The notes: generated by a model not told the origin, from the sequence alone. 63,526 bases of DNA, filler included, from Stramenopiles sp. TOSAG23-3 (GCA_900128585.1; 16 parts of 16 records of this genome joined end to end with filler, not necessarily neighbours in it); one strand, 5' to 3'; shown: positions 12,440-13,210, counted from the first letter of the whole stretch. Numbers and translations: made by a program.

Positions 12440-13210
12440 ATGCAAGCAGCTCCCAAGTACACTGCAGAGTCGCCTCCGCTGCGACTGCTGACTATCCCAA
12501 AAGGGACGTTACTCGGGTTCAAAGCTTGCCCTGGGCGTGATGCCACGCGTTTGCTTACACACTGTGCCGAAAAAAAACATACAGCCCTGTGGTCTGCTAT
12601 ATACGTTCAGCTCTCACTTCAACAAGCCATTAATTACGTTCCCAACCAGTATGATCGTGGCGAGGAAGTGTGCTGCATTTGTCGTATGACCACACGGCAA
12701 CCTCTCCAAATTGCCGTGTTTGAAGATGTGCGAATGGGAGACAACGAAATGTCTTCAGAAGACAAAGCCCAGCTAGTGCGAGATGCCGTGTTGCAGACGC
12801 CAGAACTTGACTGGAAATTGAATGCAAATGACACGAAGGGTCCACTTTTGAACATTTTTGGGGCGAGGGGTTTCGCCTTGTGTTTGCTAGATTGTGAAAC
12901 TTATGAGGTGGCAATGCCCCACAATTTGGTTCATACAGATTGGCTCACCACGGACTGTTTGATCATTCTCCCAGCTAGCACAACGATACCGGGTGGTGTT
13001 ATTGGTTCGATCATTGTTTTTCCACGCAGCCCAAACGATAACCAAAAGGAGGGGGAAGCGAAGGAAGCGTTGCGAATAGCGTTTCAAAAGTTGCCAACAC
13101 TGAGACCTTGGGATTTGGCTGACCCCGTATGCCTGGGACAAACCCTGGAGGACCGACTAGGAAACGATCTGTCTCTCGATGTGAGATCAACATGGTTTTC
13201 AAATACTTGA
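12440..13210 (+). CDS. Putative diphtheria toxin/exotoxin A-like ADP-ribosyltransferase-fold protein (256 aa)
   Basis: LLGFKAC...ALWSAIYVQLSLQQAINYVPNQ...GPLLNIFG...ETYEVAMP parallels ExoA FVGYHGT...AIWRGFYIAGDPALAYGYAQDQ...RLETILG, with identical W-x3-Y-x7-A-x2-Y spacing. Confidence 0.55.
   Translation: MQAAPKYTAESPPLRLLTIPKGTLLGFKACPGRDATRLLTHCAEKKHTALWSAIYVQLSLQQAINYVPNQYDRGEEVCCICRMTTRQPLQIAVFEDVRMGDNEMSSEDKAQLVRDAVLQTPELDWKLNANDTKGPLLNIFGARGFALCLLDCETYEVAMPHNLVHTDWLTTDCLIILPASTTIPGGVIGSIIVFPRSPNDNQKEGEAKEALRIAFQKLPTLRPWDLADPVCLGQTLEDRLGNDLSLDVRSTWFSNT

Follow-up and report, generated by a model that had tools for sequence, protein, structure and literature searches.

An undescribed eukaryotic family related to the catalytic domain of diphtheria toxin, found as a stand-alone protein in a stramenopile

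Catalytic domains of the diphtheria toxin (DT) type are familiar as the toxic payload of AB toxins secreted by bacteria. Their histidine lies at the end of strand beta-1 and is H21 in DT and H440 in exotoxin A (ExoA). The NAD-stacking tyrosines of DT are Y54 and Y65, eleven residues apart, and its catalytic glutamate is E148. The subject of this text is a gene for such a domain in Stramenopiles sp. TOSAG23-3 (GCA_900128585.1), located at 12440-13210 (+) of a window of 63,526 nucleotides. The window is the whole stretch of DNA analysed, in which 16 parts of 16 records of this genome are joined end to end with filler. The encoded protein of 256 amino acids (P0001) is one of a eukaryotic family, so far undescribed, that is sister to the DT catalytic domain and has a K/Y/Y/E core. 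The protein is homologous to the C domain of DT and its actinomycete relatives and is probably a single-domain enzyme of the cytosol, which would act as an intracellular NAD+-dependent mono-ADP-ribosyltransferase.

The structure 9QE9 shows the C-domain of SAIP1.1, which is a DT homologue from Streptomyces. The consulted part of its report describes a block of translation in wild-type cells but not in DPH1-knockout cells, and gives His24, Tyr55, Tyr66 and Glu147 as key residues (PMC13171429). In the Albireti and Peptono toxins an Arg is found at the H21 position and the A fragments are cytotoxic, according to excerpts of a second report (PMC9018708). The consulted parts of these papers on DT homologues name no eukaryotic one. 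A literature search found no DT-like ADP-ribosyltransferase (ART) described in diatoms, and an earlier mention in the review literature on ART evolution is possible.

The relationship to this group is seen first in sequence profiles. When the profile of the 63-member family alignment (A2) was compared with 177,635 PDB sequences, the sole match at E<=10 was 9qe9_A, annotated as an 'ADP-ribosylating toxin' (the SAIP C-domain), at E 1.8e-5. A profile of 82 sequences retrieved the same chain at E 2.7e-5. With a sub-profile (A3), 9qe9 again came first, though at no better than E 0.022 and ahead of interleukin-6 matches that are noise, and a phmmer search of the PDB with P0001 returned only a beta-xylosidase at E 0.08, also noise. 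In the profile alignment Y55, Y66 and E156 are paired with positions 75, 86 and 167 of the 9qe9 chain, which by a counted offset of 20 are Tyr55, Tyr66 and Glu147. Moreover, the stretch from W51 to Y66 is aligned with WKGLY...AAGY, and PLL-x3-G with PLMDALGE. For a second comparison, a template was built from three natural DT-like proteins obtained from 3/401 genomes of one actinomycete family. Against it, hhalign gave A2 a probability of 96.3% (E 1.8e-9, 131 columns), and 97.2-97.8% once the template was trimmed to the C domain. E156 pairs here with the Glu of E-[YI]-I-V-P-W, and the W-x3-Y-x7-A-x2-Y spacing is identical in all three proteins. The Pfam model PF02763 itself was matched in 0/401 Actinomycetota genomes and 0/14 control genomes, and PF09009 had no match anywhere searched.

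Further evidence came from the predicted structure. The AlphaFold2 model made with the family alignment has a predicted local distance difference test score (pLDDT) of 93.1 and a predicted TM-score (pTM) of 0.89; single-sequence AlphaFold gave an unusable model (pLDDT 33). All six Foldseek matches at E<=1e-3 are DT homologues (SAIP and the Albireti toxin) followed by DT, and the top 36 ranks are occupied by the DT family. Rows 1-45 of VIA-align hold nothing but DT homologues (Z 10-11.8) and ExoA, cholix and PE-like toxins (Z 8.5-9.7), and the next rows fall to 6.4 and 6.3. The best of these, 7ri3_B, has Z 11.8 with 174 residues aligned at a root-mean-square deviation of 3.5. A search of 48,161 chains carried out independently of Foldseek gave Z>=8 for nine chains, all of DT, ExoA or cholix type. 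In this search and in VIA-align, toxins of the RES/ParT/MbcT type reached Z 5.4-6.4, below the DT group and without a sequence match. In the 48,161-chain search PARP (ARTD) catalytic domains scored Z 3.5-4.1 and no PARP chain exceeded Z 4.2, and none of the 63 members had a Pfam PARP match. Residues 9-239 of the model are aligned to 1-187 of DT, which is the whole toxin C-domain. In fold and in profile-level sequence the protein thus belongs to the DT branch of the H-Y-E ARTs. A reading made earlier from the sequence only had proposed a toxin-type ART variant, with an ART fold and DT, ExoA and cholix domains as the matches to look for; the profile and fold searches bear this out, with strong matches to DT, its homologues, ExoA and cholix only.

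A word-indexed search returned nine proteins at identities of 100, 70, 54, 51, 50, 46, 46, 44 and 42%, one of them a EukProt entry from Pseudo-nitzschia multiseries. With phmmer, 1.84 billion cluster representatives yielded 93 matches at E<=1e-3, of which 56 also pass <=1e-10 and 7 pass <=1e-30. The Ig-repeat protein P0083 is a false positive among the 93. The family hidden Markov model (HMM) matches 108 of the 109 proteins collected. A search from a central member led to BDR26DRAFT_204295, from the chytrid Obelidium mucronatum. Source names are present for the Pseudo-nitzschia and Obelidium relatives only, and the name given is 'hypothetical protein'. The domain falls under no Pfam or NCBIfam model, and P0001 alone has no match to either collection.

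The only invariant columns of A2 are K28, W51, Y55 and E156 (63/63 each). They are followed by Y66, Q57, D151 and P160 (62/63 each), K109 (61/63), A110 (60/63), N69 (59/63) and A63 (58/63). The residues equivalent to the two NAD-stacking tyrosines and the catalytic glutamate of the toxins are therefore invariant or nearly so, as are the additional DT-branch motifs PL[LM]xxxG, D-x4-E and a P after the Glu, and the conservation of the motifs, as judged from the alignment, is far beyond chance. It follows that the residues picked out by eye in the sequence-only reading are the conserved core of the family. Their positions, like the intronless frame itself, proved exact on retranslation. The W/Y/A/Y spacing which that reading likened to the toxins recurs in the three natural DT-like proteins, and the distance from Y66 to E156, whose codon lies at 12905-12907 within TYEVAMP, is 90 residues as it had counted.

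The majority of members are 200-260 amino acids long, with the domain at the very start. Five are fused to a GNAT acetyltransferase (P0014, P0037, P0099, P0102 and P0103), one to MSS51_C (P0022) and two to a DUF747 membrane protein (P0040 and P0062). In P0018, P0019, P0054, P0094 and P0106 a strongly hydrophobic N-terminal segment lies ahead of the domain. Such a segment could act as a signal or targeting peptide, in which case some paralogues may be exported or organelle-bound. In a quick tree, for which the careful search was unfinished, the family falls into three large clades. P0001 is paired with P0003 (support 99) in the clade of the Pseudo-nitzschia protein, the GNAT-fused P0014 and P0102 form one well-supported clade beside it, and the chytrid protein lies in another.

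If the protein is an active transferase, NAD+ would bind in the cleft between Y55 and Y66, and E156 would drive both the breaking of the nicotinamide-ribose bond and the transfer of ADP-ribose. K28 on beta-1 would assume the role of the toxin His in positioning NAD. A single ADP-ribose would then be moved onto a target within the producing cell; action inside this cell is suggested because a signal peptide, a translocation domain and a receptor domain are all absent. The N-terminus (MQAAPKYTAESPP) is hydrophilic without a hydrophobic signal-like segment, and the whole protein is taken up by the domain, in agreement with the earlier description of a stand-alone enzyme without signal peptide or delivery domain. 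All close structural relatives modify diphthamide on eEF2, and by this analogy eEF2 diphthamide is the first candidate target. With eEF2 as the target, tight control would be needed, for example as a translation shut-off triggered by stress or infection. The most far-reaching form of this idea is an endogenous eukaryotic DT counterpart that ADP-ribosylates the cell's own eEF2 diphthamide, as a regulated translation brake or suicide switch in stress or virus infection. In that full form it is unlikely.

The part of the site that departs from the toxins is strand beta-1. On the ungapped global Viterbi path of hhalign, L-L-G-F-K-A-C lies on V-T-G-Y-H-G-C, with G26 on G, F27 on Y and K28 on H. In the structural alignments the ExoA rows begin with residue 20 of the model and residue 432 of ExoA, and therefore, provided that the strand has no gap, K28 lies over residue 440. 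Every member has an aromatic residue at position 27 (F or Y in 63/63), like the Tyr preceding the toxins' His, which backs the pairing of K28 with that His. K28 is likely to be the counterpart of the catalytic His of the toxins. The Arg of the Albireti and Peptono toxins is a precedent for a basic residue other than His at this site. With the Tyr-Tyr-Glu core kept and the His never present, the family is a natural experiment on the role of strand beta-1 in catalysis.

Several points weigh against an active DT-like transferase. No member among the 63 has a His on strand beta-1. Furthermore, the maximum-accuracy (MAC) alignment of hhalign pairs K28 with the Lys of Y-H-G-x-K and places the hydrophobic L25 at the His position, at a posterior of ~0.2-0.4. 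For both reasons the contribution of beta-1 to NAD binding is uncertain; the earlier claim that Lys replaces His agrees with the Viterbi path and the structural offsets, and disagrees with this low-posterior alignment. Identity to the solved toxins is just 8-14%. The Pfam ART models, including Diphtheria_C (PF02763) and Exotox-A_cataly (PF09009), match 0/63 members even at E<=10. That K28, Y55, Y66 and E156 share one pocket is inferred from the alignments. A constitutive DT-like activity in the cell's own cytosol should be lethal if eEF2 is hit, unless the activity is low or kept in check. A scan for partner genes in 36 of the 59 long ORFs (open reading frames) of the window brought up neither an inhibitor nor a macrodomain or ADP-ribosylhydrolase (the 23 left out being overlapping or antisense frames or scanned earlier). 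The recurrent GNAT fusions hint at another chemistry or target, and a shared fold is no demonstration of a shared substrate. Lastly, expression support consists of contigs alone, and a contig from an RNA library is no proof of transcription.

Some of these points would fit a different chemistry on the same fold, namely an NAD+ glycohydrolase or the ADP-ribosylation of something other than protein (a small molecule, a xenobiotic or a nucleic acid), maybe alongside acetylation. A non-lethal activity of this kind would account for the tolerance of a stand-alone copy in the cytosol, and the missing His and the five GNAT fusions speak for it, as do the next-best folds, NAD-degrading or -phosphorylating RES-type toxins at Z ~6. 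Yet all matches at Z>=8 are mono-ARTs of a protein, eEF2, and Arr-type small-molecule ARTs are absent from the best 50 of the 48,161-chain search. The homology is specific to the DT branch and includes motifs beyond the NAD site (PLMxxLG and D-x4-E-x3-P). This chemistry is a minor possibility. It is quite unlikely that the family consists of pseudoenzymes, in which the DT-type fold serves as an NAD- or protein-binding module without catalysis. The Glu and both Tyr are kept in 62-63/63 members across deep clades, the pattern of purifying selection on an active site, even though the canonical His is lost and E153-T-Y-E156 stands in place of Q-x-E. Many eukaryotic ART-like families have been proposed to be pseudoenzymes, as stated in part of one report (PMC7955679), but active DT homologues without the His exist, as excerpts of another indicate (PMC9018708). 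An active intracellular mono-ART remains the favoured reading.

The features of the gene are collected in Table 1. The frame has no internal stop, its first ATG is at 12440, and a search of the window found one copy of the gene.

Table 1. Features of the DT-type gene and matching RNA-library contigs, in window coordinates
Feature	Position	Strand	Basis
CDS of the DT-type ART catalytic domain, 256 amino acids plus TGA stop, without intron	12440..13210	+	Translation; end-to-end alignment with homologues; model
K28 codon, invariant Lys of the G-[FY]-K-A strand (beta-1)	12521..12523	+	K28 63/63
W51-S-A-I-Y55-x7-A63-x2-Y66, strand and helix bearing both NAD-stacking tyrosines	12590..12637	+	Aligned with 9qe9 and three DT-like proteins
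P135-L-L-N-I-F-G141, common to PLMDALGE of DT-like toxins	12842..12862	+	G141 58/63, P135 47/63
D151-C-E-T-Y-E156-V-A-M-P160-H161, hairpin with catalytic-type Glu	12890..12922	+	E156 63/63, D151 62/63, P160 62/63
Contigs from RNA libraries	12312..13250	+	Four metatranscriptome runs from four studies, two PolyA; 0-1 differences, no joint inside the ORF

A eukaryote-type transporter gene of the Aa_trans family (533 amino acids) is found at 13631-15232 (-), 420 bases away, with no N in between. Other ORFs of the window encode PTHB1/BBS9, an H+-pyrophosphatase, an RPA-interacting protein, and EF-hand/IQ and WW proteins. The GC content at third codon positions (GC3) is 0.48 in the DT-type ORF and 0.47 and 0.70 in its two neighbours. 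Because of the N-free contiguity with the transporter gene, the eukaryotic neighbouring ORFs and this GC3 value, the DT-type ART gene is part of a eukaryotic chromosome. The sequence-only reading had tied it to the host genome by a 'family A repeat'; no repeat was found in 11975-15861, and the host link stands on the transporter gene instead. No tRNA and no Rfam family were found near the gene either. The PTHB1/BBS9 gene at 16151-18764 (-) is spread over three ORFs and therefore contains introns. The BBSome, of which it is part, is associated with cilia or flagella, and owing to the presence of this gene the source organism probably has a flagellate stage, a reason to be cautious about classing it as a pennate diatom. 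Two further features concern the window as a whole. Paired runs of 44 N with 12 bases between them recur every ~3,985 bases throughout and look like masking rather than assembly gaps, and the GC content swings from 0.25 (44-48 kb) to 0.63 (48-50 kb).

The DT-type ART gene is real, conserved and represented in RNA libraries. No RNA-library contig was matched to 12000-12284, which is not evidence for a transcript end. One contig of 331 letters, from run X15, matches 12312-12412 and continues with 230 unlike letters from 12413, where no GT is found; contigs from two other runs are colinear across this point. The X15 contig may be a chimera, may come from a variant strain or may mark an alternative 5' end. 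At position 12955 one RNA-library contig has G for C, probably through strain variation; the substitution would change D172 to E. Immediately 3' of the gene, many RNA-library contigs that have nothing else in common match the short stretches 13351-13383 and 13458-13494, up to a depth of 104 and with loose ends on both sides. This stretch is single-copy in the window and has no tRNA or Rfam match.

That the gene is a bacterial toxin gene of recent acquisition, or that it stems from bacterial or viral contaminants in the assembly, is very improbable, for although the nearest characterised relatives are actinomycete toxins and the best viral-model matches are two giant-virus proteins, identity is ~13% to the toxins against 42-70% to eukaryote-type homologues, GC3 lies within the range of the neighbours, the transporter gene adjoins without N, PTHB1/BBS9 and the H+-pyrophosphatase are among the window genes, and the searches of Actinomycetota genomes, genome contigs and viral contigs gave nothing but chance matches. 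In these searches the family profile matched 0/401 sampled Actinomycetota genomes and 0/1 metagenome-assembled genome (MAG) of Saprospiraceae, and two pattern scans of IMG/VR viral contigs found no relative. Two genome-contig candidates were rejected as chance matches, one a membrane protein with WSAIYIQ and the other a CRISPR RAMP-like protein. The lateral acquisition suggested in the sequence-only reading is, as a recent event, at odds with a diversified eukaryotic family (93 representatives) and with the absence of a prokaryotic member from the samples searched. Since the family is also deep in eukaryotes and the toxins share only the low identity given above, a recent bacterial transfer is not supported. 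The two viral proteins, both from Klosneuvirinae, were found by Foldseek in BFVD (A0A3G5A8V6, E 8.3e-10; A0A5K0U6H7, E 4.7e-8) and match better than any solved toxin. On the strength of these model-based matches, an old exchange with giant viruses may have occurred.

In this family the DT-type domain is stand-alone and probably intracellular, and it has diversified in eukaryotes without a Pfam or NCBIfam model to record it. Part of one report (PMC6143161) records a proposal that ADP-ribosylation of diphthamide also takes place endogenously and reversibly. The family offers a directly testable candidate enzyme for this modification and bears on the source of the DT scaffold. If an endogenous DT counterpart does exist, it would reveal which molecule carries out the modification, for protists and chytrids at least, and would suggest a common origin of bacterial toxins and host enzymes. 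Related claims published for other families concern DUF4291 (PMC12522546), secreted Beauveria proteins (PMC12099005) and LRRC9 (PMC7955679), as far as the consulted parts of these papers go.

Among eukaryotes, DUF4291 (PF14124) is described in those parts as a predicted DT/ExoA-like ART family present in 646 eukaryotic species (PMC12522546). Like the family of P0001 it is uncharacterised, ART-like in fold and has eukaryotic members, but the motifs described for it, QAY and WVK, are both absent from P0001. It was set aside as a separate family, with 0.15% for A2 in hhalign against a shallow three-sequence template and 0/63 members matching its Pfam model. DUF3990 (PF13151), a small stand-alone ART of the H-Y type in the Pfam ART clan, provided the clusters nearest to P0001 by language-model features (0.88-0.90). 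This lead was unconfirmed (0.28% in hhalign of A2 against eight sequences, no Pfam match). The language-model look-alikes of the chytrid member were retroviral-protease clusters and were discarded as noise. In Beauveria bassiana, BBA_04708 and BBA_04559 are reported as secreted proteins that are DT-like by predicted structure, in the part of the source consulted (PMC12099005). They are eukaryotic, as is the present family, but are secreted fungal proteins. The giant-virus proteins of Hyperionvirus (A0A3G5A8V6) and Yasminevirus (A0A5K0U6H7) are 181-190 amino acids long, with 16-17% identity and a TM-score of 0.72 by target length.

Among toxins, domain III of ExoA, cholix and PE-like proteins has a similar ART fold (Z 8.2-9.7), with G26-F27-K28-A29-C30 lying on G-Y-H-G-T. 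The likeness is weaker than to the DT branch and lacks a sequence-level match, and these toxins are multi-domain and secreted. The C-domains of DT (1DTP/1TOX) and its actinomycete homologues (SAIP1.1 9QE9, Albireti 7RI3, Peptono 7RB4) have the same fold, with 150-188 residues aligned at Z 10-11.8. Common to them and the new family are W-x3-Y-x7-A-x2-Y, an N three residues past the second Tyr, PL[LM]xxxG, D-x4-6-E and a P after the Glu. The family differs in having a beta-1 Lys (or Leu by the alternative alignment) for His, E-x-x-E (E153-T-Y-E156) for Q-x-E, and ~40 extra residues, and in having no translocation domain, receptor domain or signal peptide. Its members are also eukaryotic, apparently intracellular and undetected by Pfam Diphtheria_C. 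A lone DT-C-like domain of similar size does exist in bacteria: an ORF of 231 amino acids from a Streptomycetaceae-family genome (L020:1282-1977, -), which is part of the hhalign template. It keeps Y-H-G-x-K, the two Tyr and the Glu and has no signal, translocation or receptor part. In its architecture it is the bacterial counterpart of the stand-alone proteins found here in eukaryotes.

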